In this document: one piece after another, positions 25,367 through 43,072 of the stretch
Position numbering within the stretch: position 1 is the stretch's first letter
Layout of the letters: the number at the start of each line of letters is the position of its first letter
Source: a virus
Taxonomy: Duplodnaviria; Caudoviricetes
Reading direction: 5' to 3' (one strand)
DNA: 64,000 nt
Virus record (IMG/VR): IMGVR_UViG_3300027708_000013
Position numbers and translations under genes: made by a program
Notes under the pieces: model-generated
Told to the model about the DNA's origin: nothing
Database searches by the model: none
Seen by the model: only the letters and a program-made list of their open reading frames with translations

Positions 25367-25657
25367 TTATCCTTTCAATAACCATATTAAGTGTTCTACT
25401 GTGCTGTGATATCTAACAACGTGTACTGGTGGTCTCGGAATCGCAACAGCAGAAGTTGAATCACTGTGATTATTATAAGCACCGCGGTATGCTGTTTCCA
25501 ACCACATCAGCCGTCCACTTATGTCACAACGCTGAGGCCACCATAAAAACAGCAACCGCCATTCAATGTGTTCGCGGTACCATTCAGCTACCCAGTCTTC
25601 AGTCATTGATCTCCTGCCGGGTCCTAGTATTCCTGGCATGGGCATTACGTACCCCAC
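25367..25657 (-). CDS. Hypothetical protein
   Basis: Trp-rich ORF between queE and 24890; start uncertain. Confidence 0.5.
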   Translation of the reverse strand: MGYVMPMPGILGPGRRSMTEDWVAEWYREHIEWRLLFLWWPQRCDISGRLMWLETAYRGAYNNHSDSTSAVAIPRPPVHVVRYHSTVEHLIWLLKG

Positions 25658-26496
25658 TCGTTCTTGAAAAGCGGCACTTGAAGTCTGTCACTGTATCTCC
25701 AACCACGCTTCATAGCCGCCCCTGCTACATTACGTGCATTCAGTGAGTACACACTTTCCACACCACCCACTGGCATCAAGTACACAGGACCTGTAAAGCC
25801 TGCACTACGATATGCACCCACGGCACATTCTGCATCAGCAACATCTTGTTGTGTGGCCACAACAAATTTCAAATACGCTGTTCCATAATTTTCATATTCG
25901 CATACAACATCTGGAAGAATAGCTTCTTCCCACTTTTCACCTGACGCTGGAAGTTTAGCACTAACACTAAACGTAACTTCTTTTGAGTTTTCATAAACCC
26001 AATCTTCTAAATAACTTTTAAATTCTTCTGTTAGTTTTTGAGTGCCATTTGTTTCAAAGGTTATTTCTTTCAAAGCCTTCAAACTGGGATGATCTAGTAA
26101 ATCTGGGTAGGCACGTTGCCATCCCAACAAAGGTTCCCCTCCAGTGATCACAAGATGTTCGTCTCTCCACTCACCATGTGGTAAGATCTCCATGATACGA
26201 GCCACAATGGCATCCGTAGTCAACATGGGACTGAGCTGTTTAAAGTCCGGATGCCACGACGCATAACTGTCACAACCAGTTGACACCAATGGTAATGCCT
26301 CATATCGTGGGTAAGGATACAACTCATGTATTGCGGCCAAGTCATCGGCTTCGGTACTTGACTCGCCACGTGGCATGCCAAATCCGCTACAAGTGAAGTT
26401 ACACCCAAATGTTCGAAGGAACACACTGGGTACTCCCATGTATCTTCCTTCTCCCTGGATTGAATAAAACAGTTCTGCTATTTTAATCTTGCTCAT
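25645..26496 (-). CDS. queE: 7-carboxy-7-deazaguanine synthase (radical SAM)
   Basis: ELFYSIQGEG, FLRTFGCNFTC...CDS, VITGGEP, FETNGT, SAKL, DRLQV. Confidence 0.93.
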   Translation of the reverse strand: MSKIKIAELFYSIQGEGRYMGVPSVFLRTFGCNFTCSGFGMPRGESSTEADDLAAIHELYPYPRYEALPLVSTGCDSYASWHPDFKQLSPMLTTDAIVARIMEILPHGEWRDEHLVITGGEPLLGWQRAYPDLLDHPSLKALKEITFETNGTQKLTEEFKSYLEDWVYENSKEVTFSVSAKLPASGEKWEEAILPDVVCEYENYGTAYLKFVVATQQDVADAECAVGAYRSAGFTGPVYLMPVGGVESVYSLNARNVAGAAMKRGWRYSDRLQVPLFKNEWGT

Positions 26497-28461: not shown

Positions 28462-28665
28462 TCAACATTGGTTCCAATGTCTTACTACACCTGCGATTAT
28501 AACAAAATTTGTTATTATGTATATCAACACAATTACTGTGCGAACACCGGCGACGCCGTCGGCTTCTTGATCAGTAGCACCAGTTTTTTCACCCAGTGCC
28601 TTGGCCCAAATTCTCCAAAGATGCCTAACCTTCGTAGATGGCACTGTTGGCTCCATGTTCAGCAC
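28462..28665 (-). CDS. Small membrane protein
   Basis: WRIWAKALGEK followed by a hydrophobic segment; start uncertain. Confidence 0.5.
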   Translation of the reverse strand: MLNMEPTVPSTKVRHLWRIWAKALGEKTGATDQEADGVAGVRTVIVLIYIITNFVIIAGVVRHWNQC

Positions 28666-29251
28666 ATTCCGCTCTTACACAGTAACAACGACCATTGGTT
28701 TTTTCTCTAATCAATTGATCGGCAAAATAAAATGCATGTTCGGCAAATTTCTCTGCACCCACACCATTGAATATTCTAATTTCGGCTAATCCCAACTCTT
28801 CCAGTTCTTGGAATTTGGCAAGATATGGATCAGCGAGATCCAACGCCAATTTATGATCAAAGTTATCTTCTAACCATGCCTTGAGCGGTTTGAGTCCGCC
28901 AAAGTCCACTGCCCAGTTTTTATCATCTAATTCATCGCAACCAAATGTAAATGTAAATGCTAGACTGTAACCATGTAGCAAATGACAATGACTGTGATCT
29001 GCGTTGGGTTGACGAAACACAGCACTGAGTCCTATGTTGTGTCCGTAGTGCTTGGTTGAGTAATATTTTGCCCCAGACCTTTGCCCTGTTTCGGCAATGT
29101 CATTGAGTGCTTGCTCGGTTGATTGAACTGTATTGCGTAACTGTTCAATGTATTCAGATGTCTCGTCACTATTTGCCTTGGTGCTATGGTAATGGTTGAT
29201 TCGAGCATCAAAATAGTCGCTCAGTGCTGATGTGAAAGTTTTATTTGCCAT
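28625..29251 (-). CDS. queD: 6-carboxytetrahydropterin synthase with ~60 aa N-terminal extension
   Basis: CHLLHGY, VDFGGLK, FDHK, EHGANSA; SD AGGAGA before ATG 29251. Confidence 0.9.
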   Translation of the reverse strand: MANKTFTSALSDYFDARINHYHSTKANSDETSEYIEQLRNTVQSTEQALNDIAETGQRSGAKYYSTKHYGHNIGLSAVFRQPNADHSHCHLLHGYSLAFTFTFGCDELDDKNWAVDFGGLKPLKAWLEDNFDHKLALDLADPYLAKFQELEELGLAEIRIFNGVGAEKFAEHAFYFADQLIREKTNGRCYCVRAECAEHGANSAIYEG

Positions 29252-29337: not shown

Positions 29338-29889
29338 TTATTGTTGCCACCAAGTTTCCCAAGGAAAACAAATCCACACCGGGTCTTCCAGTTTGTTGAT
29401 GTCCGTCCCCGAATAGTCCACCAAAAACTCACTCGCAGTGTTGTTCACCAGCACAGCAGTGCGTACATTGTGATGCCAGACGTTCAGCCAACGATCGTGA
29501 TTGGGCAAACAACTGCTTTGCCAATCCTCCCGAATCCAAGCCAGTGTGGCACCGGAATCATTGATGTCGTCTACTATTAATATACGTTTAGCATGTATGG
29601 TGTAGTCAAATGCACTGTTGGTGCCCAGGCCTTGATATCCGCCATCCACCCAACCGAATGCATCTTCGGCCATGCTGAGATTACTTGTACGCTCATCTCC
29701 GTCACGCAAACTCACATCCAGACTCCGCATTGGTACGCCCAAATAATGACTCAACATCAATGCCGGAGTCAATCCACCACGTGTGAGTCCCACAATGTAA
29801 TCGGGGCGCCATGAGCCCTCGTGCAGGTCACGTATAATTTCATGCACCCAACCACGAACATCTGCATCGGTGTAATAGATTTTTTTCAT
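29338..29889 (-). CDS. Type I phosphoribosyltransferase (Gpt/Hpt-like)
   Basis: IVGLTRGG, ILIVDDINDSGATL, WICFPWE. Confidence 0.9.
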   Translation of the reverse strand: MKKIYYTDADVRGWVHEIIRDLHEGSWRPDYIVGLTRGGLTPALMLSHYLGVPMRSLDVSLRDGDERTSNLSMAEDAFGWVDGGYQGLGTNSAFDYTIHAKRILIVDDINDSGATLAWIREDWQSSCLPNHDRWLNVWHHNVRTAVLVNNTASEFLVDYSGTDINKLEDPVWICFPWETWWQQ

Positions 29890-30635
29890 CTTGGAGCAAA
29901 GTCCTGTTGTAGTTTGATATTGTCCATGAACTCTTTTTTAGTTCCTGGGTCTGTGTTGAACGCACCTTTGAGTACTGTGGTCTGTGTCAAACTACTATGT
30001 GCCATGATGCCTCTATTGGTGCAACATCCATGTTCCGCCTGTATGTAAACTCCAATATGTTCCGAATCTGTTGCTCTCATTATTTCTTTTGCGATGTCGT
30101 TGCAGAGCTCTTCTTGTAAAGTACCACGCCTAGCACACCACTGAGCAATCCTAGTGTACTTGCTAAGACCAATAAGTTTGTTAGCGGCGATAATACCAAT
30201 GTAAGCCACACCACTAACAGGCTGATGATGATGACTACACATACTACGCAACTCACTTCTAATAACCAACATACCTTCATATCTATCCTCGCTATCATTT
30301 GGAAAAGCTGTTGCATCTGGTGCTGCATCATATCTACCCGCCATCGTTTCGTTAAAATACATTTTAGCCAATCGCTTGGCAGTGCCCTTGCTGTTTGGAT
30401 CCGTTTCTCTATCAATCAGCAAGCGATCTAAAACAGTTTCGAATGCCTCAGCGGCTTCGTTGATCAATTGTCGTTTGACGGCATCATTATTGACATATTC
30501 GCTAATATTGTCTCCAGCCCAAAATCTTTTACCATTTCGTTTCATTGTGGCACGAATCACGTCTGATACTGGGCATAGTTGATAACCACCGTCACCTGCC
30601 ATTGCGGCTAGGCCTGTTTCTTTTTTATTTGTCAA
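29886..30635 (-). CDS. folE: GTP cyclohydrolase I
   Basis: TAKRLAK, SMCSHH, GLSKYTR, RRGTLQE, HGCCTNRG. Confidence 0.96.
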   Translation of the reverse strand: MTNKKETGLAAMAGDGGYQLCPVSDVIRATMKRNGKRFWAGDNISEYVNNDAVKRQLINEAAEAFETVLDRLLIDRETDPNSKGTAKRLAKMYFNETMAGRYDAAPDATAFPNDSEDRYEGMLVIRSELRSMCSHHHQPVSGVAYIGIIAANKLIGLSKYTRIAQWCARRGTLQEELCNDIAKEIMRATDSEHIGVYIQAEHGCCTNRGIMAHSSLTQTTVLKGAFNTDPGTKKEFMDNIKLQQDFAPR

Positions 30636-30658: not shown

Positions 30659-30687
30659 ATTGTATAGTATTTAGATTCAAGTGTCAA
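30659..30687 (-). promoter_or_regulatory. Sigma70 promoter TTGACA-17-TACAAT with nested TAAATA
   Basis: -35 at 30682-30687, -10 at 30659-30664, TAAATA at 30668-30673. Confidence 0.8.
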
Positions 30688-30743
30688 ATAATTATGAACA
30701 TATATTATATAATAAATACCAAAACAATGTGATTATATTCAAA

Positions 30744-31826
30744 ATGAAACGTGCCGTTCTTTGTGTTGCCAATCCGCAGGACTATATCAATCAACTTGAT
30801 GATTACAGTATTATGATTGTCAATCCTGATGCTCCCGTGTCACGACAGCAGTATCTACTAGATAATTCAGATTGGAGCCTGCTGATCACAGCCGATGGTG
30901 AGCAACATCGTGACGGTGCCGACTACCCCAATGAACGAGTGTTATGGTATACTTCGGGCACCACCGGCGACAGTAAGTTTTGCAGTTTTAGTCAACGACA
31001 ATTAAACCATATGGCCGAAACCATTGTACAAGCATATGATCTAACCGAACAGGATAGGTATGTCAGTGTCATGAGTCTTTGGCATGCACACGGGCAAGGA
31101 TTTTATTGGGCCACACAGTTGGCTGGATGTGAAACACACTATCTTTCAGTTAAAAACCTACGTGCCTGGCCCAGCTACAGTCCTACCTTTGTCACTGCCA
31201 TACCTGATGTATTACAAACCGCCACTCAGTTAAAATTTGATAACAATCTAAGGTTTATACGCACAGCCAGTGCTCCATTGCCTGATCGGTTGTACACTGC
31301 ACTACGAGAATGTTTCGACGTCCCGGTATTGGAAGCATTTGGTATGACCGAGGCAATGAGTCATTGTTTTACCAATCCCTTACACGGTGAGCAAAGAATG
31401 GGCACCGTGGGTTTACCGTCAGGAGTTGAAGCTCAAATTGATGATGGGCACCTGTTGTTGCGTGGTCCCACTTTGGATAGAGAGGTATGGTTTGACACCG
31501 GTGACTTGGCCGAGCAAGATGAAAAAGGATACTATCGAATACTTGGTCGCAGCCGTGATCAAATCAATGTCAAAGGTGTTAAATTAAATCCGTTGAGTCT
31601 GGAACAAAAAATACTTGAGAATATCGCCGGAGTGTCGGCGGTGGCAGTGTTTGGCTCAGATTCGGTTAAATGTGTTTATGTTGGATCTGTTGACAGTAAA
31701 GAAATTCAACAATTCTTAATTGATCTAGCACCATACTGTCGAGCCACAGTATTGGAATCTGTTTCTGCTATACCCTTGACTCCTGCAGGTAAAGTATCCC
31801 GCAGTTTGTTAAATACTCTTTACTAA
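30744..31826 (+). CDS. AMP-binding acyl-CoA synthetase-like protein, compact
   Basis: YTSGTTGDSK, EAFGMTE, DTGDL, GRSRDQINVKG, GKV. Confidence 0.9.
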   Translation: MKRAVLCVANPQDYINQLDDYSIMIVNPDAPVSRQQYLLDNSDWSLLITADGEQHRDGADYPNERVLWYTSGTTGDSKFCSFSQRQLNHMAETIVQAYDLTEQDRYVSVMSLWHAHGQGFYWATQLAGCETHYLSVKNLRAWPSYSPTFVTAIPDVLQTATQLKFDNNLRFIRTASAPLPDRLYTALRECFDVPVLEAFGMTEAMSHCFTNPLHGEQRMGTVGLPSGVEAQIDDGHLLLRGPTLDREVWFDTGDLAEQDEKGYYRILGRSRDQINVKGVKLNPLSLEQKILENIAGVSAVAVFGSDSVKCVYVGSVDSKEIQQFLIDLAPYCRATVLESVSAIPLTPAGKVSRSLLNTLY

Positions 31827-31939
31827 AGTATTTTAAGTTATAAACTGGTGTTTTGGTTAACTTGTATATTTTGTGTTGCTAACAAAACATAAAGATTGTC
31901 TGTTGTCGTGTAGTAGTGTATATTCGTAATGGTCAAGAA

Positions 31940-32557
31940 TCATTTGATATTAATTAATCTACAATCGGGATAGTCAAAATGCTTGTCAAGTTGAGGAGTG
32001 AATTTCTTTTCATTGAGCAAGTTTAATCCCGCTACACACTCTTCTGGACGTAGGTAATAATGATATCCGACTTCAAATTCACATTGTGAAATCCACGGAG
32101 TATAGTTAAAAATATCCCTGCCATCATAACGCATACGACTGGCACGACGATATACTTCTGGATCATCGGTCAACAGGCAACCACCAAGGCCAATTTCCAA
32201 TGGTTTACTCATGCCAAAACTTACACATTGTATAGTGCCCGATTTGTACATATTAGATTCAAATTTACGAGCATAGTCCCAAATATTAGACCCTTTAAAC
32301 TCATATGACCCATGCCAGCGGTCATTGGTTAACATGTACGGAATGTTTAACTTCTTCATGGTCATTGGCACACTCAGATAAGTGTATGCTGGAAACATAA
32401 CCATGTCATTATTAAAATTTATACGAAATGCTATTTCTATAGCATGAGTACAGCAATCTGTGGTTACGCAATAAGGTGCACCAGTATAGTTGGCTACCGC
32501 CAACTCAAAGTCTTGAATAACATTAAATGGATTTTTATAATCACTTAATTTAATCAT
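31940..32557 (-). CDS. Short DegT-like PLP aminotransferase-fold protein
   Basis: VTTDCCTHAI, CVSFGMSKPL.IG.GG (catalytic Lys region), RMRYDGR; only 205 aa. Confidence 0.75.
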   Translation of the reverse strand: MIKLSDYKNPFNVIQDFELAVANYTGAPYCVTTDCCTHAIEIAFRINFNNDMVMFPAYTYLSVPMTMKKLNIPYMLTNDRWHGSYEFKGSNIWDYARKFESNMYKSGTIQCVSFGMSKPLEIGLGGCLLTDDPEVYRRASRMRYDGRDIFNYTPWISQCEFEVGYHYYLRPEECVAGLNLLNEKKFTPQLDKHFDYPDCRLINIK

Positions 32558-33071
32558 GTAAATGTGTTCCTGTAATCTGCATAGTGTATCTTGACTCTAC
32601 CCCAAAGTTTCCGGCAAAATGTGGTACATCGTAATTCCACATCACATAATCTCCTCTGTTCCACGACATAATAGGGTTTCCATCAACTTCCATGTAATGA
32701 CCGGACTTCCAATCCTCTAAAAATACAATACAACGCCAGATAGTTGTGGGATCTTTTATGTTAAAATTTTGTTGATAAGAATGATAGTGGTCTTGGTGTG
32801 TTGGAAACATATTTAATGTATTCATGCAAAAAAACCCAACACCGATGTCTTTCCATTGGAAACTATTGGTAAATAATTCAATAATTGTATGTACATAATC
32901 GGGCATAGGATTTGGCATACTATATAATGCACCATTTAACGTCACATTAACATAGCCCTGTTGTTGCCAGCGTTTTTCGTCCCACGTGTTTTTAATAGGC
33001 AAATATTGGTATGGAAGATCTTTAAAACTGTCATCCCATAATATATCGATATGGCCTTGCTTATGCTTCAT
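32550..33071 (-). CDS. 2OG-Fe(II) oxygenase-like protein
   Basis: PTHQD (HxD), late PHFAGN...RYTMQIT (H...R). Confidence 0.7.
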   Translation of the reverse strand: MKHKQGHIDILWDDSFKDLPYQYLPIKNTWDEKRWQQQGYVNVTLNGALYSMPNPMPDYVHTIIELFTNSFQWKDIGVGFFCMNTLNMFPTHQDHYHSYQQNFNIKDPTTIWRCIVFLEDWKSGHYMEVDGNPIMSWNRGDYVMWNYDVPHFAGNFGVESRYTMQITGTHLHD

Positions 33072-33427
33072 TCCGACAAATGATCCTGTTTAATTTCCCT
33101 CACACTGCATCCCAATTTTTCAGCAAGAGTATTTTTAATGGCGATGCGTTTGTTATTCCAATCTCGTATCTTTATGGCGCGGCGCCCGATTTCTTCCAAT
33201 CCCAACTCCTGCTCGCGACCGGTCTTTAGTAGGCTTTCTAATTCCCAGATCTCGTTATGTATCTGTACTAAATTGTTGTATAAACCAGTAACAGGTGCAA
33301 GATCAAAATGTGACGATTGATCAAGATACCACTCAAGTTCTTCCCTGTTTGCACCCGAGGTACGTGCAAATTTTACTTCGGCAATGGCCAGTCTATCAAT
33401 TAGTTCAATAACAGGAAATATGATCAT
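33068..33427 (-). CDS. Helical hypothetical protein (DUF6165-like)
   Basis: ELIDRLAIAEVK...HNEIWELE...NNKRIAIKN. Confidence 0.6.
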   Translation of the reverse strand: MIIFPVIELIDRLAIAEVKFARTSGANREELEWYLDQSSHFDLAPVTGLYNNLVQIHNEIWELESLLKTGREQELGLEEIGRRAIKIRDWNNKRIAIKNTLAEKLGCSVREIKQDHLSE

Positions 33428-33971
33428 GATATTTTTTTGCATTTGATAAAATTAAATCTTTATTAACCGACCCTATTTCTTTAACAGGAGATCCAGCATA
33501 TACAATCCATCCATTTAAATTTTTATTAACTAGGCTATTAGCACCAATTCTTGCTCCGGTGTCTACAGCTACGTTTGGTAATATAACTGAATTTGCACCT
33601 ACAATGACATGCGAGCCAATATTAATATCTCCAGTTACAAAAAAATGATAATCAGTTTGTTCGTTTACAATTACTATTGATTTATAAAAATCGTTGCTAC
33701 TGCACAATAAAGTAGAGTTTGGAGCTACAGCGGAGTGTTCTCCCATAGTAATTTTATAATTTTTGCCACCCATAAGAACACAACCCGCTTCTATTTTAGT
33801 ATTGGAATTCATAATCAACCCAGTGGAAATAAAAGTAAAATCGTCAATAATAACATTGTCGTGCAATTCTACCAGTTCCGGAAATCTAATACGAACCGTT
33901 TTGCCAATGATTACATTATTGCCTCTATATTTTAAACGAGACGTATCAAAAAATATGTTTTCATTGTTCAT
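33405..33971 (-). CDS. Hexapeptide-repeat O-acyltransferase
   Basis: Left-handed beta-helix repeats, VGANSVILP, IGANSLV, YAGSPVK. Confidence 0.9.
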   Translation of the reverse strand: MNNENIFFDTSRLKYRGNNVIIGKTVRIRFPELVELHDNVIIDDFTFISTGLIMNSNTKIEAGCVLMGGKNYKITMGEHSAVAPNSTLLCSSNDFYKSIVIVNEQTDYHFFVTGDINIGSHVIVGANSVILPNVAVDTGARIGANSLVNKNLNGWIVYAGSPVKEIGSVNKDLILSNAKKYHDHISCY

Positions 33972-34996
33972 AGATATAAGGCCTCGATATCTTTGGGATT
34001 ATTTAGAATATTTTGTATCTTAATATTACTTATATTGGGTCTACAAGGTTGGCAAAATTCAACCCGAGTTTTATTATATATGTCATAATGACGTTTGTTT
34101 AACCAACTGTCACGGAAGTCGTTTTTGTCCCAGTTAGTTAACTCAAACTGAGGATTACCCTTGCCTTCACAGCACAAATAGATTTTACCGTTGGCACAGA
34201 ACACAGGAAAGTGGAACATTTGATGACATTTCTTATAGTTGCGTGGAAGTGTTTTGTTTTGGTTGGCCCAGTATGGTAACTGGTACTGTTGGCTATACTT
34301 GTCTAAACGAGCAATAGTCTCTTTGGTAATAGGATACGCTTGATTATCAACAATTACAGGACGGAAATATAACATGCGACCCTTGAGTTCTTTAACCAGC
34401 CTAAACAAGTCGTTTATTGCTTCGTCATTGTCATTGAGCGGATTGATCAAGCACTTGAAGTCTACATTAACTCCGGCCTCAATTAATCCACGAGCGTTGT
34501 TGCACACTTTAGTAAACAAACTTTTGGCAGTTAAACTGCGTCGTATCTGTTCGTATAAATCTTCTGTGCCAGCATCTATGTCAATGCCAATCCAGGCTAT
34601 TTTGCGTAACTTTTCTACTCTGACTGTGTCTAGCAATTGATCCAAGTTACTTCCGTTAGTGGTGATGCTGGTTAAAAATCCCAAGTCTATGGTATGTTCT
34701 ATCACTTGTTCATAATTGACCAATACAGTGGGTTCGCCGCCGCCGGGATAGGTTATGGTGTGTGTTGTTCCGTAACTGCGAGGCGAGTGGGCTCTCCACC
34801 CAGCTAGTTGATCTAACAAGTCTATGTATTCTGTATATTTCTTTTGCACTGGCTGTTGTTGTCTAAACTCGGCACTGTTGCAATAGTAACAGTCTTGGTT
34901 ACACACATTGGTCAGGTCAATGTCTACTTGAGCCGGTAGTATTTTCATACTGTCGGAGTTTGTCATCCAGTGTGCTACTTCAGCGTATTGATACAT
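33968..34996 (-). CDS. Radical SAM/SPASM protein
   Basis: CNQDCYYC, GGGEP, TTNG; C-terminal C...G.IY.CC...CQPC. Confidence 0.9.
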   Translation of the reverse strand: MYQYAEVAHWMTNSDSMKILPAQVDIDLTNVCNQDCYYCNSAEFRQQQPVQKKYTEYIDLLDQLAGWRAHSPRSYGTTHTITYPGGGEPTVLVNYEQVIEHTIDLGFLTSITTNGSNLDQLLDTVRVEKLRKIAWIGIDIDAGTEDLYEQIRRSLTAKSLFTKVCNNARGLIEAGVNVDFKCLINPLNDNDEAINDLFRLVKELKGRMLYFRPVIVDNQAYPITKETIARLDKYSQQYQLPYWANQNKTLPRNYKKCHQMFHFPVFCANGKIYLCCEGKGNPQFELTNWDKNDFRDSWLNKRHYDIYNKTRVEFCQPCRPNISNIKIQNILNNPKDIEALYL

Positions 34997-35937
34997 TCTT
35001 GTATTTTAGGTTGATATTGAGTATCAAACTCACCGGCAAAAAATTTAGCTCTATTAAGTGCTCGTCTTGCCACAGTGTTTTGATTAATTTTATATAAATC
35101 TTGCTGGATTAAATCTTCAACAAGTTCATGGACTTTTGTGATTCTTGTTTGCCAGTCGAGTTCGTTGTCATAGTACTTATGATCGATTATGTCGTCAAAA
35201 ACATCTACTCCCTGAGTTCTGAGATAGTCAACTGTGCCGGGATTGCCTATTATTAGAAATAGTTGTCCCGTGGCCACAGGTTTCCAAGTTTTTTCAGTGA
35301 CAAATACCTTAGGTATAACTGTAGTTTCTGTTACCAAGTTGATATAACTATCAGCATAGGCAGAATGGGATAAATCGGTACTGGTCTTTACCATTAACGA
35401 CACCCTTGCATCTCCTAGCCTGGATTGAATTGAATTCCATTTTTCTAGCATATTGTTGCTTAACTCATAATTATCAGTTCTCATTGAGAACTGATCGGAT
35501 TGACGATGCATACTAAACAAAAGATCAGCAACATAGGGTTTTTCTTGAAGAGTCATCCAATTATAAATTCTATGCGGTCGTGGTACGCCATTTAGGCAAG
35601 ACACTTTGTATTTCTTTTCTATTTCAAGTAAGTCGGGGCAATTATATAAGTTTTTCCGGCACCAGTGATACCAGTGCGGATAAAATAACAATCGTGGTTT
35701 TATTAAATGATCCTGTGGATTGTGACTCAACAATAAAAAATTAAGACCATGGGATTCCAAGTCATTATGCAAGTTGTACAAAAAGTCACGGTCTCCGTAA
35801 TGCTCACTGCCAAAGTCGGCAACAACCAAATTGTGTGTTTTTAATAGTGTTATTTTTTCTTGATCCAAGCACCAAGTAGTCTTGTTAAAAATCGTATCTG
35901 GCTGATTAAAATAAAAAACTCCTGGTTGATTAAACAT
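34975..35937 (-). CDS. Glycosyltransferase-like protein (VTET...TEK..KP family)
   Basis: SCLNG.PRPHR, INLVTET, FVTEKTWKP; likely start 35937. Confidence 0.6.
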   Translation of the reverse strand: MFNQPGVFYFNQPDTIFNKTTWCLDQEKITLLKTHNLVVADFGSEHYGDRDFLYNLHNDLESHGLNFLLLSHNPQDHLIKPRLLFYPHWYHWCRKNLYNCPDLLEIEKKYKVSCLNGVPRPHRIYNWMTLQEKPYVADLLFSMHRQSDQFSMRTDNYELSNNMLEKWNSIQSRLGDARVSLMVKTSTDLSHSAYADSYINLVTETTVIPKVFVTEKTWKPVATGQLFLIIGNPGTVDYLRTQGVDVFDDIIDHKYYDNELDWQTRITKVHELVEDLIQQDLYKINQNTVARRALNRAKFFAGEFDTQYQPKIQECINTLK

Positions 35938-36904
35938 TCCTGGTGTACCACCGATGGGCACTATCAATGATGGTGGCAATGTCACTGTGTTCAGGCACCC
36001 ACGCCATCTTTTCTTTTATTAAACCAGCATCGGCCACAAGTTCCGCAGGATCTCCAAATCTAGCTGGACCATAATTAACCGAAGTTATCCCGTATTTTTC
36101 TAATACATAATCCACAATGGCTTGATTGCTGGTGCCTGTGTTGGTGCCTAGGTTAAACACTTCAGCACCAGGTTGTGGATAGTCATTGAGTTTATAATCA
36201 GCGGCCATGACATGTGCTCTGGCTATATCCCATACATGTATGTAGTCTCTTACACAGGTACCGTCCTCTGTGGGGTAATCACCACCGTTGATAGTAACAG
36301 GTTGTTGAGCTATGCTGGCTTCTAAAGCACGAGCTATCAAGTGTGTGGCACCAGGTTCTTGACCTAGATCTGCACTGAAAGGTTCTGCACCAGCAGCATT
36401 AAAGTACCTAAAGCACACACTGGGTACAGCATAGGCGCCCCAGTAGTCGGCCAACATGCGTTCAGTCATGGCCTTGGTGGCACCGTAGGGACTGATGGGT
36501 TGGATAGTGTCGTATTCTCTGCAAGGCAATCTATCGGGTTCTCCGTACACACTGGCACTGCTACTGAACATTACTACAGGTTTAGTATCAAAGTCTTTCA
36601 CCGCATTCAGCATGCGTATGGTCTTGGCAATGTTGTTGTCGTAGTATTCACCAGGATTGTCCATGCTGGGCCCAACCAAGCTGGTTCCGGCACAGTGTAC
36701 AACAACATCTGGTGCCAGGCTGTGCATGGTGGCTAGACTGCTATCACTGGCGAAATCTGCAATCAAATAGCCATCTATACCTTGTAAGGTATGATCTCTT
36801 TGCTCTCGATCAATGATAACCACATGATCACCATTCTGTTTGAATGCTCGTGCCACGTGGCTACCAATGTAACCACAGCCTCCAGTTACTATGATTTTTC
36901 TCAT
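35930..36904 (-). CDS. galE: UDP-glucose 4-epimerase
   Basis: VTGGCGYIGSH, SSSASVYG, YGATK, FRYFNAAG, VRDYIHV. Confidence 0.93.
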   Translation of the reverse strand: MRKIIVTGGCGYIGSHVARAFKQNGDHVVIIDREQRDHTLQGIDGYLIADFASDSSLATMHSLAPDVVVHCAGTSLVGPSMDNPGEYYDNNIAKTIRMLNAVKDFDTKPVVMFSSSASVYGEPDRLPCREYDTIQPISPYGATKAMTERMLADYWGAYAVPSVCFRYFNAAGAEPFSADLGQEPGATHLIARALEASIAQQPVTINGGDYPTEDGTCVRDYIHVWDIARAHVMAADYKLNDYPQPGAEVFNLGTNTGTSNQAIVDYVLEKYGITSVNYGPARFGDPAELVADAGLIKEKMAWVPEHSDIATIIDSAHRWYTRNV

Positions 36905-37131
36905 TTGGGTTTTGTTTGTGTTAGTTGCCAATTTTTTTCTAGCAAGATATTGTTTTTTTTGCGTAGGTCAATGACATCCTGTATTAAACTGTCTGTCAAA
37001 TTACGATGGTACGCTAAATCCCGTTGTAGCTTTTCATCAGTGATGGGAGGTTTTTGTTGGCTGGCACAATAGGCATAGCCGGCTAAAAAGCCTACCATCC
37101 CAACTACACCAGTTAATAAGTCAATGGTCAT
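36901..37131 (-). CDS. Small membrane-anchored coiled-coil protein
   Basis: N-terminal TM helix. Confidence 0.6.
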   Translation of the reverse strand: MTIDLLTGVVGMVGFLAGYAYCASQQKPPITDEKLQRDLAYHRNLTDSLIQDVIDLRKKNNILLEKNWQLTQTKPK

Positions 37132-37144
37132 ATATAAAATCCTT

Positions 37145-37348
37145 TTATGTTTGGGTCAATGGGGTCGGGAATACAATAGTTTTTAACATTACATATTGAT
37201 CAAATAATTTAGTTAATTCATTTTCCTCACCCAGGAACCATTGACTGGCAGCTCGCATACTCAAGGCATCAAGTTCAGTTTCGGTCAACATGGGGTACTG
37301 CTCTCGAGCCAAAGTTATCCAAATTTCTCGTTTAGTATTTAGACTCAT
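37145..37348 (-). CDS. Hypothetical protein
   Basis: 67 aa ORF overlapping the GT stop. Confidence 0.55.
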   Translation of the reverse strand: MSLNTKREIWITLAREQYPMLTETELDALSMRAASQWFLGEENELTKLFDQYVMLKTIVFPTPLTQT

Positions 37349-38510
37349 GTGTGTGTTTTCTGTAATCTGTACTCATGCGTAGCCACTGTTCTCCAGATCC
37401 TTGTAATATATCAACAATACGATCAACAGTACCATCGGTCCAGGCACTGATACGGCCCATGTGTTGGCTTGGTTTGTTCAACAAAGATTGTAACTTGCTC
37501 ATAGCATCTTCCAAACTCCAAGGAACATACAAGCGGCTTGCGTCGTTGGCAAAAGTCTCAGGGAAACTTCTATATGCTGGATATAACACATTGGCACCCA
37601 AGGTATCTGCTTCACTCACAGTGTTAGACACCCAATCTTGTAAAGCACAGTTAAACAATACCCTAGTGTCGTTTAATAACGCATAGTATTCATTCTTCTC
37701 AAGGTTATCGTACACTTTGATCATGCCCTTTGCTTCAAACGCACGGATACGATCAATGGCACCTTGATCATTGCCACGCAGTTGAGAGCCACTGAAGATA
37801 GCAAACTCTACTCGAGGCAAATGAAAGTTATCGTGCCATGCTTGAATTAAATCTAAATAAAAGTGCGGCTGTTTTTCTTGATCTGTTCTGGCCGCAAAAG
37901 CCACTCGCATGGCTCTTTGATCAAACGGTGTTAATTCTCCAGGCACTCTTGCACGGACTTCATCTCGACCAAACGCCAAGCCGGAGATGTTGTAGATCGG
38001 GGCTTCCCAGCCAGCTATTTTCATGTGCATTGCCATTTCTTCGTTTGAAGCTAATACAATATCCGCAAAACTATCCACCATTTTCTCATAAAGTGCCATC
38101 CACTTTGACATACCCCAGACATGAACGAAATCGTCCGGGTCAATGCTTTGTGCAAGACAACGAACAGCGATCCTAGGACGCATGTTAGGCTCAACTTGAT
38201 TAATAATGTAAGGTAGGCTCTCGATGCCTGGTTGAAACATGTCTTCAAAGTATATAACATCTTCATTTGTGATTTCTCCTGCTTTCATTTTTGCCACAAG
38301 CATCATTAATTGACTCATACCAAAGTAAGTACGTCCGTGTGCATCCAACACCTGTCCGGTTACAATGGCTTGATCATTGCTTAATGTTTCACCAGCGACA
38401 ATTTCATAATCAATACCACGACGCCGAAATACACGTTCGTTCCAGTCTTGTAACTGTAGTGTGTATCTTGCTTTATAGGGCTCTAGGCCCATGTACCAAA
38501 GTTTTCTCAT
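37332..38510 (-). CDS. GT-B glycosyltransferase, T4 DNA alpha-glucosyltransferase-like
   Basis: N-terminus MRKLWYMGLE...YT..LQDW recalls Agt (MRICIFMARGLEG...QRDW). AART..EKQP; QDWVSNTVSEA. Confidence 0.7.
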   Translation of the reverse strand: MRKLWYMGLEPYKARYTLQLQDWNERVFRRRGIDYEIVAGETLSNDQAIVTGQVLDAHGRTYFGMSQLMMLVAKMKAGEITNEDVIYFEDMFQPGIESLPYIINQVEPNMRPRIAVRCLAQSIDPDDFVHVWGMSKWMALYEKMVDSFADIVLASNEEMAMHMKIAGWEAPIYNISGLAFGRDEVRARVPGELTPFDQRAMRVAFAARTDQEKQPHFYLDLIQAWHDNFHLPRVEFAIFSGSQLRGNDQGAIDRIRAFEAKGMIKVYDNLEKNEYYALLNDTRVLFNCALQDWVSNTVSEADTLGANVLYPAYRSFPETFANDASRLYVPWSLEDAMSKLQSLLNKPSQHMGRISAWTDGTVDRIVDILQGSGEQWLRMSTDYRKHTHESKY

Positions 38511-38845
38511 CGTGCTTTCCTAAATTCTTCAACATCTTTCACTGCTTGTTGTAGTATTGTAGCATAGTTGACAGCCTGTTGTCTATTCATTATGAGACTA
38601 GATTCGTATCGGATGTAACCTCGAGTCAGCAGTGTCCAGATGTGATACCATCGAGTTCTACTCCACCAGTTGGTTTTACCTGTGGTATAGGTAGTAACAG
38701 TGACACCTGTTTCATCGGATTCGACCCAAACATCATGATCATGATCACTTTGGCCACACTCACATATGACCTTGTACATTTTGGCGTCGCCCCAGGTGTT
38801 TTTGATCAAGACTCCGGTGGCAGGAGTTTCGGGTGTTAGCGCCAT
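38507..38845 (-). CDS. Hypothetical protein
   Basis: ORF in operon; CEC...H motif. Confidence 0.65.
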   Translation of the reverse strand: MALTPETPATGVLIKNTWGDAKMYKVICECGQSDHDHDVWVESDETGVTVTTYTTGKTNWWSRTRWYHIWTLLTRGYIRYESSLIMNRQQAVNYATILQQAVKDVEEFRKAR

Positions 38846-39105
38846 GTTCTTGGACGCCAATTTGCATCACGTGGTTTGAAATCACGTTTTTCTTTGGGAT
38901 ACGGGCTCCAATTATCTTTAGGATGTTTGCCGGCTTTCACACGTTGCATTTCGCCCCAGGGAGTTTTTTCATTGTAGAGATGATTTTCATCATACACATA
39001 ACCTTGTTTTTTACAGAACGTGAGATACTCTTCAAGATCATCAAACAGGTCGCGGACTTCGGGTCTTAAGCGAAGATATTTGTTTAACCAAGTGGGCTGG
39101 CCCAT
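38836..39105 (-). CDS. Hypothetical protein
   Basis: 89 aa ORF; SD AAGGAG. Confidence 0.7.
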   Translation of the reverse strand: MGQPTWLNKYLRLRPEVRDLFDDLEEYLTFCKKQGYVYDENHLYNEKTPWGEMQRVKAGKHPKDNWSPYPKEKRDFKPRDANWRPRTWR

Positions 39106-39116
39106 ATACTACTCCT

Positions 39117-39560
39117 TTAAATTACGATTGAAAGACTTGGACGGACTACGTTGTAATTGATATGGCATCCGTTTTCACCGTCCTCGGATACCTCAATTGA
39201 TACATAACGACCAGGATATCGTTCTGCTACTTGAAGATAGAGATCGTCGGCGAGCATTTCCACACTTTTAAAGTCCAACTGTAACACATCCTTGCTGTAA
39301 AGACTTTCCAGCCAACGTTTGAATTGTATAAATTCAATGTCTCTATCATTATGCTCTACACCAATCCAGACTTGAAAATGGAATATGTGTCTGTGACTAT
39401 TGGCTAGGAAACTCACATCATACTCACCGGGAGTACACAAGTTGGGATCTGTAGCTGCAGCTGGATAGCGATGTATGCCTTCACGTTGGAACGTGACCCA
39501 AATCTGTCTTTGGGCCTGTGTCATGATTCTATCCACTGTTTCTCTCAATTCTTGATTCAT
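39117..39560 (-). CDS. dpdL: QueD-like T-fold protein, DpdL-like (candidate CDG decarboxylase)
   Basis: LANSHRHIF matches LxxxHRHxF rather than QueD CxxxHGH. Also RDIEFI, SVEMLA and VSEDGENG. Confidence 0.72.
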   Translation of the reverse strand: MNQELRETVDRIMTQAQRQIWVTFQREGIHRYPAAATDPNLCTPGEYDVSFLANSHRHIFHFQVWIGVEHNDRDIEFIQFKRWLESLYSKDVLQLDFKSVEMLADDLYLQVAERYPGRYVSIEVSEDGENGCHINYNVVRPSLSIVI

Positions 39561-40078
39561 TTTATTACCTCATCTTTGGTATATTGACTCCAGTCCGTAA
39601 AACACTTACGGTCCTGTAACGCATGTAAACTATGACACCAGACTCCAGGATTGGAGGCCGCAAAGTCTCTATCGTCTAGTTTAATTGTAGCATTATATCC
39701 CAGCTGTTGTATATAGGGCAATTTAACCGAAAGCATGGGAACAAAGTTGTGAAACTCTGTCAATCCACTTTCCAATAACCCTTCGGCACAGGCAACATCT
39801 ATATCCAAGGTGCACAACATACCACGGCGTAAAAATGGAGTAATCATAAGTTCCCATGCTTGCCAGGCCTCGGCATCATTCACTGCCAACAGTGGGAAAC
39901 TGTGATTGGCACCAAAATAAATATGATCAATTGGGTATGGTTGTGCATCAGCGGCAGTGATGATGGCCGATTCGCTGTGTACACCAATGACAAATAAAGT
40001 TTTTTTATTGTATGCTGGTGTGTGTTCTACTTCAGTTCCAACGAAAAAGTTCACATCTTCATGTCCAGGTCTATCCAT
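39557..40078 (-). CDS. Conserved-looking hypothetical protein between dpdA and dpdL
   Basis: SD GGAGA, ATG 40078 at the dpdA stop; GTEVEHTP, HIYFGANHSF, GVWCH. Confidence 0.75.
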   Translation of the reverse strand: MDRPGHEDVNFFVGTEVEHTPAYNKKTLFVIGVHSESAIITAADAQPYPIDHIYFGANHSFPLLAVNDAEAWQAWELMITPFLRRGMLCTLDIDVACAEGLLESGLTEFHNFVPMLSVKLPYIQQLGYNATIKLDDRDFAASNPGVWCHSLHALQDRKCFTDWSQYTKDEVIK

Positions 40079-40079
40079 G

Positions 40080-41675
40080 TTATTCTCCAAATAGGTCTGG
40101 GTTGAGTAAGGGCCGTGGTTGTTCAGTTTTAACAGGTTTATCGCGAGCCAAATTGCCTTCGATGTCCACCAGTTTACCGGCCATGGTGTATGCATTTACA
40201 ACTTTATCGCCTTTGAATCCTCTGGTTCCGATGATGTCGGTCCAATACTTGCTGTATTTTTTAATAATTTCTAAACTGTCTGCTTGCGTTGGAGCAACAA
40301 ATATGCTTTCCACAATGTCTTCAAAGTAGGCATGGTCTCCGGTGCGTCCTTTGGTTCCGCTGTACTGCATCATTGCCGGATGTTCACCACTATCGAATCG
40401 TCTATTGGCTTCTTGCACTGCTGTCAAATGCATCCAAACATTGTGACCCATCAGCAACATATAACTGAAGCTGTCCCAACTAGTTCGTGCTGGCTCTTTG
40501 CCATTCTTATTAAGATCACCAGGTGCATACACACAAATATCTTTCATTTTCAGCATGTTGCTGATGGGGCTTTCATCCCAATTTTTAATTGCTGTGCCAG
40601 GATCTTTGACAGGCAAGTCAGCCAATACTCCTGTACTCCATTTACGAGTGTCTTGGGCATATTTTTTATCATCCAACACAGGAGCCATTCTATAACTCCA
40701 TTTACCGTCCTGTGGGAATACGTTTTCAAAGTACACCTGTCCGTTGGCAGTGGCCAAGAAAGGACTGGCACAATCAAAACTAATGGTAAAAGCAGGATTG
40801 ATGTGTTTTCTCACCGCACGTTGTATAACTGTAAGTAGCACTGCCCACTCTAATTTGCTAGTGCCCAAGAAGTGCATCCAATCATGTACGCCTGGTTGTA
40901 GCAAATTATCATATCGTAATGCAACAAGTCTTTTTAATACTAGTTCTACATCACACATGTTCTGACCACCCATACTCCAGCCATTAAAATGTGTGTCGGG
41001 ATACTTGACAGGATCGCAATAATCTTTCATTGTTTGATACCATTGTTCAGCATCATCGTGATTGGCACCTTGCAACACGTTCAACACTCGCATACCACCG
41101 TTGTTGATGCCTCGACGATGCTTCATGTAAAAGTCATTGTTGAATCTAGTGGCATCCACAGCTTCTTGTAGAGTGCTGATACCACATGCCAGACTGGCTT
41201 TCTTATCGTGTATCACCCAAGTTGGAATATCCAAGGTCATGCCATAATCGGCAATGCCATCCAGCCATTTAAGCACAGCTTCACGCCGAGCTTGAGCCCG
41301 GGGGCATCCACTGTTAGCCCGCCAGTCACCTTCCCATAGGCCTTTGGCAATTTGGAAACCACCTGAATCGCCCAGCATCACGGTGTTGGGATCTCTATTA
41401 CGAACCATGTCCTCACTCCAGTCCTGCTTGTTAAGATCAAGATTGGCATGACCACCCGAGTAAAGACTCCATCGATAAGGGAACAGGGCTTTCTGTGCAT
41501 CAAGCCAGTTCATCTGTTCCATATCTGTCAGGCCCTGTGGAAAACGTGCAGGATCTACATAAGGTGTTGCTGAGGTATCACGTTGTTTGCCTATGAATGT
41601 GGCATAAAACCCCGAGATGGCTGGAAGAAATACTGCATAATCTTTTTGTTTTGCTGTTAAGTTATCTTGTTCCAT
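40080..41675 (-). CDS. dpdA: tRNA-guanine-transglycosylase-like DNA transglycosylase (DpdA/DpdA2-like)
   Basis: LGDSGGFQ, MTLDIP, LNVLQG, GWSMGG, HFLG, SFDCAS, HN; que genes nearby. Confidence 0.85.
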   Translation of the reverse strand: MEQDNLTAKQKDYAVFLPAISGFYATFIGKQRDTSATPYVDPARFPQGLTDMEQMNWLDAQKALFPYRWSLYSGGHANLDLNKQDWSEDMVRNRDPNTVMLGDSGGFQIAKGLWEGDWRANSGCPRAQARREAVLKWLDGIADYGMTLDIPTWVIHDKKASLACGISTLQEAVDATRFNNDFYMKHRRGINNGGMRVLNVLQGANHDDAEQWYQTMKDYCDPVKYPDTHFNGWSMGGQNMCDVELVLKRLVALRYDNLLQPGVHDWMHFLGTSKLEWAVLLTVIQRAVRKHINPAFTISFDCASPFLATANGQVYFENVFPQDGKWSYRMAPVLDDKKYAQDTRKWSTGVLADLPVKDPGTAIKNWDESPISNMLKMKDICVYAPGDLNKNGKEPARTSWDSFSYMLLMGHNVWMHLTAVQEANRRFDSGEHPAMMQYSGTKGRTGDHAYFEDIVESIFVAPTQADSLEIIKKYSKYWTDIIGTRGFKGDKVVNAYTMAGKLVDIEGNLARDKPVKTEQPRPLLNPDLFGE

Positions 41676-42294
41676 AGAACTTTACTGAGTTAATTAATTC
41701 GTAGTCTGCGGCAAAGTAATCTTTGACTGCTTTGAGATATCGAGGATTTTGTATTTCTCTCTCAAATATATTTTTAAACTTTTTACGTATGGGATCTGCT
41801 TCACTGACATGTTGTGGTTCATACCTATGATACCTATTAGGCATACCCTGTTCATCCAAGAACACACTGAAGTCTTGTCTATAGTATTCGTCACATAGAA
41901 AAAACACACATTGTTCACTGTCAAGTCCATGTACAAAGTTTACTTGACGCTCGGTGTGGTCGTCAAATGCAATTCTATCAAAAATTAAATCCATGGCTTC
42001 TAGATCATGCATGATAAAATCTGGATGATACAGTGCAAGGTATTCGGCAATGCCCGAAATCCAACGCTCAACAGGATCACGCAGTACCACCATGGCTGTT
42101 TTGATCTGAAGAATTCTATCTGTGTGATAGTTGTAGAACTCCCAACCAAAATCTTTCAAGTTGGGTTTGGTCCACGAGCTGGCATTTTTAGGAATGTTGA
42201 CATACATGAGATCCGTGTTGTTGCTGGACATGCATTGACCATACACATGGCCTTTTGAACTCCACTGAGTTAAAAATCCTGCATCAATCTTCAT
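41662..42294 (-). CDS. Sulfotransferase (Sulfotransfer_2-like)
   Basis: YVNIPKNASSW (5'-PSB), VLRDPVERWISG (3'-PB), DYELI. Confidence 0.85.
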   Translation of the reverse strand: MKIDAGFLTQWSSKGHVYGQCMSSNNTDLMYVNIPKNASSWTKPNLKDFGWEFYNYHTDRILQIKTAMVVLRDPVERWISGIAEYLALYHPDFIMHDLEAMDLIFDRIAFDDHTERQVNFVHGLDSEQCVFFLCDEYYRQDFSVFLDEQGMPNRYHRYEPQHVSEADPIRKKFKNIFEREIQNPRYLKAVKDYFAADYELINSVKFYGTR

Positions 42295-43022
42295 TTGGTC
42301 TGTGCTGGGATAATGTAAGAGTATTCTGCAAGTCCAGAGTCTACGGTGATCATAGCAGCACCTTCATCGGAGATTTTAAATGTTTTGTCTCCACTTAGAT
42401 TTAAAATACTGATAACAGCCGCAACTGGCCAATTCCATGCTTTAGAGATAGTACCCGAAACTCCTGCTTGAAACACAAAGTTACCTGCATGACTGCTGGC
42501 ATCACCAAAGAAGAATTTCAAGTCACCGTTTTCGGTTTTGGCAATGAATGTGGTTTCTTCACTGTTGGCACTGGCTTGAAATTTCAAACGTTGAATATTT
42601 GCATTGGTGGGAACAAAGTCCACACCCCATTTGACACCTTTGAATTTCACTGCTTTGAGTTTGTCATTGATGATTTCTGCAGCCATAAAACGATAGTCGT
42701 TTTTAAAGTCGCCGGCGGCATTTTGAAAATGTACTCCTGCGGGAATAGATTCACCGTTACGGTCTTGACGATTGATACTGAGTTGTGCATTTTCTCTGTA
42801 TTCTGGAATACCCAAAATAGTATTGAGTTTGCCCAAGTTAGGCATACCAAACACACCAATGAAATCTGGATGTGCTGATTTGAATCGTGCTTCTACGATG
42901 ACTGATCTATCTTCGGCCACTGCATTGATCACTGTGTCGTCTTCAGTGCCGGTAATTTTAACTAGGTCAATAATGCCCAGTCCGTGTGTGTGCGATACGA
43001 TATCTTTTAAAAAATCTTGCAT
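42291..43022 (-). CDS. Sliding clamp, T4 gp45-like
   Basis: 243 aa, next to the polymerase; clamp-like beta/alpha pattern ending AEYSYIIPA. Confidence 0.7.
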   Translation of the reverse strand: MQDFLKDIVSHTHGLGIIDLVKITGTEDDTVINAVAEDRSVIVEARFKSAHPDFIGVFGMPNLGKLNTILGIPEYRENAQLSINRQDRNGESIPAGVHFQNAAGDFKNDYRFMAAEIINDKLKAVKFKGVKWGVDFVPTNANIQRLKFQASANSEETTFIAKTENGDLKFFFGDASSHAGNFVFQAGVSGTISKAWNWPVAAVISILNLSGDKTFKISDEGAAMITVDSGLAEYSYIIPAQTK

Positions 43023-43042: not shown

Positions 43043-43072
43043 ATTATACGTGATTGTATTTAGACCTGTCAA
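43043..43072 (-). promoter_or_regulatory. Sigma70 promoter TTGACA-18-TATAAT with nested TAAATA
   Basis: -35 at 43067-43072, -10 at 43043-43048, TAAATA at 43057-43062. Confidence 0.7.

Follow-up and report, generated by a model that had tools for sequence, protein, structure and literature searches.

ORF173, a phage-only protein family tied to DpdL-type 7-deazaguanine DNA-modification clusters

Open reading frame (ORF) ORF173 is located on the minus strand (39557-40078) of a 64,000-nucleotide stretch of Caudoviricetes DNA (IMG/VR record IMGVR_UViG_3300027708_000013, hereafter called the window) and encodes a protein of 173 amino acids. Judged from sequence comparisons, it founds a large, phage-only and previously undescribed family. 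Its gene stands between dpdA-like and dpdL genes, and the protein is best regarded as a new addition, as yet unassigned, to an established type of DNA-modification system: it would be a conserved, co-transcribed part of the DpdL-type 7-deazaguanine module that lies outside the core chemistry. Tentatively, and with chances somewhat short of even, ORF173 is taken here for an enzyme of a tailoring branch linked to a glycosyltransferase.

ORF173 is a genuine gene far beyond chance, because its homologues (E <= 1e-3) formed 5649 clusters at 90 % identity, many of them 65-72 % identical to it, on contigs of up to 374 kb. Clusters at 50 % identity that matched it amounted to 561, of which 344 scored below 1e-10. 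A ribosome-binding site (GGAG) precedes the ATG at 40078 by 6 nt. An alternative in-frame ATG at 40195 would yield 212 residues (39 more) and overlap the upstream gene; this start is disfavoured because all homologues in the family alignment begin at the shorter Met (consensus MxRxY). The sequence-only reading, made earlier from the letters of this DNA, had ORF173 overlap both of its neighbours, which proved correct downstream, where an ATGA junction joins its stop (39557-39559) to the start of dpdL (39558-39560), but not upstream, where one base separates its ATG from the stop of the dpdA-like gene (40080-40082). Since a single sigma-70-type consensus promoter (43043-43072, minus strand, 12/12 match) was found, upstream of a sliding-clamp-like gene, and no terminator-like site was found on the minus strand from there down to 36500, ORF173 is probably co-transcribed with the dpdA-like gene, dpdL and a gene for a glycosyltransferase of GT-B fold.

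Family members were gathered from viral contigs and from metagenome-assembled genome (MAG) contigs bearing the same phage genes. MAG contigs of phage-like appearance were the sole matches in cellular genomes, and neither an isolate-style genome scan with the single ORF173 protein nor a megablast of the region against phage records returned any. A tblastn search over 50,697 phage records detected ORF173 in only 13, all DpdL-positive: 11 PA5oct-like Pseudomonas jumbo phage records and two records of Acidovorax phage ACP17. No match to ORF173 was obtained in Pfam (E <= 0.01), PHROGs or NCBIfam; 83 diverse family members remained without a Pfam match at E <= 1, and the family profile met only chance picornavirus VP2 matches among PDB sequences (E >= 0.015). 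No description of the family was thus met in Pfam, PHROGs, NCBIfam or PDB, and the paper on phage deazaguanine clusters (PMC10516641) does not mention it.

The alignment displayed G14, E16, E18, T27-V30, G32, H52, G56, S60, K133, D135, D136, N143, G145-W147, T161 and W163 in at least 85 % of members and no conserved cysteine; the conserved polar set comprised E16, E18, H52, N58, D92, K133, D135, D136 and N143. Over about 170 residues the family signature reads FxGxEVExT, TLFVxG, HIYxGANxSF, TLD, KIDDxxF and NxGVW, and ORF173 carries it throughout. The motifs that had been called conserved-looking from the single sequence were all present (GTEVEHTP at 14-21, HIYFGANHSF at 52-61, TLD, and KLDD..DF..NPGVWCH at 133-149) and turned out to be truly conserved across the family.

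Among cultured phages, gp122 of ACP17 (L002:7956-8441) and gp121 of PA5oct belong to the family. The annotated start of ACP17 gp122 (L002:8043) is placed too far downstream: an in-frame ATG near L002:7956 gives MERAYAQG...FFIGDEVEHT and restores the first strand and the EVE motif, so that anyone building expression constructs on the database entry would obtain a truncated protein. Remote homologues of 143 and 155 residues were encountered in Xanthomonas phage BUDD (L095:3027-3458) and Burkholderia phage BCSR5 (L097:8656-9123), respectively. This branch matched the ORF173 family at hhalign 83 % (E 8.5e-6, 104 columns), and a search of whole genomes with its profile recovered ACP17 gp122 (E 4e-4). 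E16, E18, T27 and K133 recur in this branch, as do acidic residues at the equivalents of 92/93 (after the VT of strand 4 in both groups) and 135, and it keeps the motifs EVE, TxF, IY, VT(V/L)(E/D) and IK(I)(E/D).

Longer relatives (260-350 residues) were considered as Rosetta-stone fusions and rejected, their additional C-terminal part being a low-complexity tail and not DpdL or another enzyme. In members P0138, P0145, P0149, P0188 and P0245 these tails are rich in Ser, Thr, Glu and Lys, comprise 100-180 residues and end like AA(A/E)AYA(E/A)G..DP; one long-member tail matched positions 195-249 of PF07230, the T4 portal model (7e-10). Paralogy with the other 173-residue ORF of the window (32550-33071) was likewise rejected (hhalign 0.09 %).

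Genomic linkage was determined in 141 loci from viral and MAG contigs, collected by probing with the query plus three divergent relatives and representing 105 distinct ORF173 sequences. Loci were counted only where the flank sufficed, with a limit of 3.5 kb to the DpdL start or the DpdA-like end. Far from occurring mostly without dpdA, which would have spoken against the linkage on which the sequence-only reading relied, ORF173 was followed by DpdL within this distance in all 75 loci and preceded by a DpdA-like gene in 83 of 89. Of the six loci that fell short, one did so only through a 2-nt overlap, an artefact of the limit. The GT-B gene was present in 46 of 47 loci. The order clamp, DpdA-like, ORF173, DpdL, GT-B was kept even at ORF173 identities of 30-45 %.

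Part of this conservation may be read otherwise. PolB was 46-88 % identical across the environmental loci (46-63 % in the most divergent ones), and these loci therefore form one broad clade in which the block PolB-clamp-DpdA-ORF173-DpdL is conserved whole. ORF173 could then be a replication-module protein unrelated to base modification, its linkage being inherited synteny, and in PA5oct its homologue is indeed found apart from DpdA and DpdL: DpdA-like, GT-B and DpdL genes are contiguous there while gp121 is 27 kb distant. ACP17, BUDD and BCSR5, however, which have other genome types and another DpdA subfamily, harbor the homologue inside the deazaguanine cluster and not by PolB. The ACP17 order is FolE, gp122, DpdA, GT-B, DpdL, QueE, and in BUDD and BCSR5 the remote homologue stands directly upstream of the GT-B gene. 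The restriction of the 13 phage records to DpdL-positive phages, and the failure to detect ORF173 in any DpdL-positive phage devoid of GT-B (see below), also argue against a replication protein, which we consider improbable. Where PA5oct gp121 is split from dpdA and dpdL, its neighbour gp122 (L001:7096-7998), a zinc-type medium-chain alcohol-dehydrogenase-like protein (ADH_N 3e-8), ends 3 nt before it and hints at redox chemistry beside the ORF173 homologue.

Comparison of 13 DpdL-positive lineages showed that ORF173 is not universal among them. It was present in the window clade and the PA5oct group, both with GT-B and a long DpdA of the window type, and in ACP17, BUDD / X1 (143-residue branch) and BCSR5 (155-residue branch), all with GT-B and a long DpdA of the ACP17 type. 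Two further lineages with GT-B, namely Phosso (long DpdA, window type) and BUCT-ZZ01 (long DpdA, ACP17 type), displayed no detectable ORF173, and neither did the six lineages without GT-B. Of the latter, D479, MA9V-3 and the phiST group carry the short DpdA3, while no DpdA type was assigned in RHph_I1_18, Ahp1 and Bakedbeans; a single weak match in Ahp1 (E 0.011), outside the deazaguanine cluster, was scored as not detected. ORF173 was thus found in five of seven lineages with GT-B against none of six without (Fisher p = 0.016, the lineages not being fully independent). The GT-B-positive set was exactly the set with a long DpdA (416-531 residues), and the lineages with an identified DpdA3 had neither ORF173 nor GT-B.

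As it went undetected in eight DpdL lineages, ORF173 cannot, on the evidence of these searches, belong to the indispensable core by which 7-deazaguanine is made or inserted, and an extra step rather than core synthesis of 2'-deoxy-7-deazaguanosine (dDG) is indicated because the protein is not required wherever DpdL occurs. In Phosso and BUCT-ZZ01 it would be dispensable or replaceable, given its apparent absence beside a long DpdA and GT-B. The view of ORF173 as a candidate for a tailoring enzyme or for a partner of DpdA is supported in part: its linkage to dpdA and dpdL holds, and its distribution follows the subset of phages with a long DpdA and GT-B.

Several proteins occupying the corresponding slot in other DpdL phages were tried as homologues and rejected. 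The 'glycosylase' gp222 of Phosso, in the same slot, showed no similarity. The BUCT-ZZ01 slot protein (174 residues) is an exonuclease, that of Ahp1 (147 residues) is helix-turn-helix-like and that of D479 (196 residues) is a metallophosphoesterase. The small phiST gene CGPG_00066 (L140:6317-6796), which PMC10516641 had dismissed, and the 156-residue protein of MA9V-3 (L139:6312-6782) are both P-loop kinase-like (AAA_18/AAA_33); in these two phages an unrelated protein of this type fills the slot between dpdL and dpdA3.

Alternatively, ORF173 could assist the long DpdA-type transglycosylase, or DpdL, as an accessory subunit or helper required if 7-deazaguanine is to be formed or inserted efficiently, for example by passing the base from DpdL on to DpdA or by opening the DNA, with no role in sugar chemistry. 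Bacterial DpdA requires a partner, DpdB. ORF173 is wedged between dpdA-like and dpdL, is translationally coupled to the latter and adjoins both in most loci; it occurs only with a long DpdA and never with the short DpdA3 of phiST, MA9V-3 and D479. Moreover, ACP17 dpdL and dpdA alone yielded no dDG in E. coli, and further enzymes were suggested by the authors (PMC10516641). Against a helper, the PA5oct homologue is 27 kb distant from DpdA and DpdL, and GT-B, ORF173 and DpdL are contiguous in the long-form lineage, with DpdA 7 kb off. Phosso and BUCT-ZZ01 possess a long DpdA without ORF173, and ORF173 itself displays no nucleotide-binding or DNA-binding motif and has an isoelectric point (pI) of 5.0. 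A helper is accordingly regarded as rather unlikely, if the least so of the alternatives to the tailoring enzyme.

An AlphaFold2 model built from 83 sequences (pLDDT 95.7, pTM 0.89) predicted an alpha/beta protein with seven strands alternating with helices. Foldseek found nothing in PDB at E <= 0.001, and the ACP17 homologue was the sole match among the BFVD viral models. With VIA-align, whose stated noise level is Z 7-8, all matches were within noise. The best were STAS domains (Z 6.5-6.9, root-mean-square deviation 2.8-3.2 A, 89-92 residues). These proteins (RsbS, SpoIIAA) share the secondary-structure order of residues 7-117 only; they lack a counterpart to the C-terminal 55 residues with K133, D135, D136, N143 and W147, and showed no sequence or profile similarity. 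Barrels of glycoside hydrolase (GH) type (GH5/GH18), to which, as to QueE, the entire chain could be aligned loosely, reached Z 4.3-5.3, and language-model look-alikes in the ESM Atlas gave weak GH-like leads (GH18, GH5, DUF4434) at 0.79-0.83; a complete eight-stranded TIM barrel would need a longer chain. The modelled fold is thus confidently predicted yet without a convincing known match.

QueE structures were among the few matches spanning most of the model: 5tgs/5th5 at Z 6.1-6.3 (123 residues aligned), 6nhl at Z 5.9 (131) and 4njg at Z 5.2 (124). Radical-SAM enzymes carry their cluster loop after strand 1, and in the ORF173 model the conserved EVExTPA loop directly follows that strand. 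ORF173 might on these grounds be related to QueE in structure, as a partial beta/alpha barrel that lacks the cluster but has kept a pterin or deazapurine pocket and serves as a carrier of, or an isomerase-type enzyme for, 7-carboxy-7-deazaguanine (CDG) or 7-deazaguanine (DG). These scores are, however, below the noise level, and STAS domains and GH-type barrels score similarly. Sequence homology to QueE or radical SAM proteins was rejected (hhalign 2 % against the QueE profile, no conserved cysteine, no Radical_SAM match in 83 members), and a structural relationship to QueE is deemed very unlikely. Identity with the T-fold of QueD and DpdL was equally rejected, in view of the lack of a PF01242 match and of the alternating beta/alpha fold predicted.

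Active sites in alpha/beta folds are usually situated at strand ends, and in the model most conserved polar residues are located at or just past these. E16 and E18 follow strand 1, H52 and N58 are around strand 3, D92 is inside strand 4, K133, D135 and D136 are at strand 6, and N143 precedes strand 7. Residues so placed point to a site of the divalent-metal or acid/base type.

The immediate neighbours of ORF173 had been named dpdA and dpdL, and both names were upheld. The gene downstream (39117-39560, minus strand) encodes DpdL, a QueD-like T-fold paralogue of 147 residues (phrog_17812) and proposed CDG decarboxylase. Its LANSHRHIF fits LxxxHRHxF, the signature separating DpdL from QueD (PMC10516641), and in tblastn it matched dpdL of both phiST and ACP17 (52 % identity to the latter). 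The gene upstream (40080-41675, minus strand) encodes a divergent DpdA-like DNA guanine transglycosylase of 531 residues with the motifs DSGGFQ, MTLDIP and VLQG. No match to it was found in Pfam, NCBIfam or PDB sequences. Its assignment is based on DSGGFQ and on the match of its profile (22 relatives) to the DpdA profile of ACP17, BUDD and BCSR5 (hhalign 94 %, E 1e-7, 192 columns); ACP17 gp123 in turn matched the TGT superfamily model TIGR00449 (4.6e-7). Homologues exist in PA5oct and Sinorhizobium phage Phosso. Against DpdA3 of phiST, the same profile reached only hhalign 0.7 %, and the window protein may, by its sequence, represent a separate DpdA subfamily.

The GT-B glycosyltransferase (37332-38510, minus strand, 392 residues) was recognized from its AlphaFold2 model (pLDDT 82), since no family match was obtained by sequence. 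Foldseek against PDB returned GT4-type GT-B enzymes down to E 3e-11, including T4 DNA alpha-glucosyltransferase (1ya6, 2e-8) and tetrahydrobiopterin glucosyltransferase (1e-8); its profile gave weak sequence matches to the GT4 enzymes WlaC and GlgM. Homologues were identified in ACP17 (gp124), BUDD (385 residues), PA5oct, Phosso and BUCT-ZZ01, and the protein was 78-81 % identical across hundreds of metagenomic clusters. The family accompanied DpdL in seven lineages, among them every lineage with ORF173, and could be a sign that the deazaguanine pathway includes a sugar modification not yet characterised.

The remaining genes of the operon, all on the minus strand, include a conserved small ORF between the DpdL and GT-B genes (38836-39105, 89 residues, pI 9.4), found in 58 of 82 loci and without a family match; a 210-residue ORF between the clamp gene and dpdA-like (41662-42294), also without a family match; and the first gene (42291-43022), sliding-clamp-like (phrog_12062), which displayed 33 % identity (tblastn, 1e-36) to the 'DNA polymerase III sliding clamp beta' of Phosso. 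Genes for the deazaguanine core were found further along the same strand: FolE (GTP cyclohydrolase I, 29886-30635, PF01227, 1.5e-39), which catalyses the first step, QueD of the PTPS family (28625-29251, PF01242, 3.6e-12) and a divergent QueE (7-carboxy-7-deazaguanine synthase, 25645-26496) matching TIGR03365 (3e-15), TIGR03963 (4e-14), TIGR04322, TIGR04508 and, weakly, Radical_SAM. A phosphoribosyltransferase gene adjoins FolE (29338-29889, minus strand, PF00156, 8e-12), and the deazaguanine cluster of BUCT-ZZ01 contains an annotated XGPRT too; the enzyme may recycle guanine that base exchange sets free, or else produce a deazaguanine nucleotide. Between FolE and GT-B (30681-36931), an AMP-binding enzyme, a DegT-type aminotransferase fragment, a hexapeptide acyltransferase, a radical SAM protein and a GalE-like epimerase/dehydratase are encoded, of which only the epimerase (60/82) and the DegT-like protein (45/82) are widely conserved in related loci.

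The gene set resembles the DpdL/DpdA phage clusters already described, with FolE, QueD, QueE, DpdL and a transglycosylase of the DpdA family (PMC10516641). ACP17, one of the DpdL phages of that study, carries the ORF173 homologue gp122 beside dpdA. Clusters bearing ORF173 differ in adding this family, GT-B and a long DpdA not recognisable as DpdA3. QueC was detected neither in the scanned ORFs of the 64-kb window nor in the 10-kb flanks of related loci.

DpdM (a preQ1 methyltransferase, DUF3109/YkgJ-like), DpdN (a formyltransferase) and DpdC (the hydratase that turns preQ0-DNA into ADG-DNA in bacterial dpd clusters) are known tailoring enzymes of deazaguanine. Like ORF173, they have their genes within deazaguanine clusters; for DpdM and DpdC, action on the already inserted base was proposed or demonstrated. 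A relation to DpdM had been left open by the sequence-only reading. None was found: the Cys-rich Zn/Fe-binding site of DpdM is absent from ORF173, the family has no conserved cysteine, and its 83 members searched are without a Pfam match. Nor was a relation to DpdN (PF00551, Formyl_trans_N) found, again for want of a Pfam match. As to DpdC, ORF173 matched no Pfam or NCBIfam model, no DpdC reference sequence having been compared directly; preQ0, the substrate of DpdC, should be absent here because no QueC was seen in the window or the related flanks. Known tailoring begins with preQ0 or preQ1, in contrast to the phages with ORF173, which would make neither since they are without QueC and QueF.

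A parallel is offered by the glucosylation of hydroxymethylcytosine in T4 by DNA alpha- and beta-glucosyltransferases, as the operon that holds the base-replacement genes of the window also encodes a GT-B protein resembling T4 alpha-glucosyltransferase; by analogy, this suggests post-replicative sugar transfer to the modified base. The T4 system differs in that the modified base here is a purine analogue without a known hydroxyl acceptor. In addition, no hydroxymethylase was seen in the scanned ORFs, and ORF173 has no counterpart in T4.

In the mechanism proposed here, FolE, QueD and QueE would make CDG, DpdL would act on it, and the DpdA-like protein would exchange the resulting base into DNA. 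ORF173 would be a small soluble enzyme, its active site formed by the nine conserved polar residues named above, and would act in a tailoring branch restricted to phages with GT-B and a long DpdA. By preparing the acceptor or processing the sugar, it would allow the inserted deazaguanine to be modified beyond plain dDG. We infer all three of catalysis by ORF173, its link to the glycosyltransferase step and a final base beyond dDG. Two published findings fit this proposal: PA5oct DNA resists cleavage at G-containing restriction sites and is targeted by nucleases sensing hypermodified DNA (PMC12191111), and no dDG was obtained in E. coli from ACP17 dpdL and dpdA alone (PMC10516641), a dpdA that gp122 and gp124 flank in that phage.

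Several observations weigh against this tailoring enzyme. Links to GT-B and to the long DpdA are inseparable and fully confounded in these lineages because the two always co-occur, and Phosso and BUCT-ZZ01 have both partners with no detectable ORF173. Environmental synteny is partly inherited, most loci being from one large clade. Fold matches stayed in the noise range (best Z 6.9) and assign no homology-based function. dDG offers no obvious hydroxyl acceptor, and to our knowledge a glycosylated deazaguanine has never been shown in any DNA.

A bolder version of the tailoring enzyme has ORF173 and GT-B together turning the 7-deazaguanine of DNA into a sugar-bearing purine analogue, which would be the first glycosylated deazapurine of any genome; in a step without precedent, ORF173 would create or handle the attachment point on a base devoid of hydroxyls. 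A glycosylated deazapurine would explain both the sensing of PA5oct DNA as hypermodified and the failed reconstitution with dpdL and dpdA, but we give it little credence.

7-deazaguanine DNA modifications shield phages from restriction enzymes. The route to dDG is still unproven: no DpdL activity has yet been demonstrated, and attempts at reconstitution with genes of ACP17 and phiST did not succeed. The present analysis links an unannotated and very abundant family with a confidently predicted fold, that of ORF173, to the DpdL/DpdA cluster and narrows its distribution to phages with a long DpdA and a GT-B glycosyltransferase. Cultured phages provide homologues in PA5oct gp121, ACP17 gp122 and the 143-residue protein of BUDD. 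Should ORF173 prove to be a helper of DpdA, the failed reconstitutions would be explained; should it belong to a sugar-tailoring branch, these phages would possess a new class of purine hypermodification.

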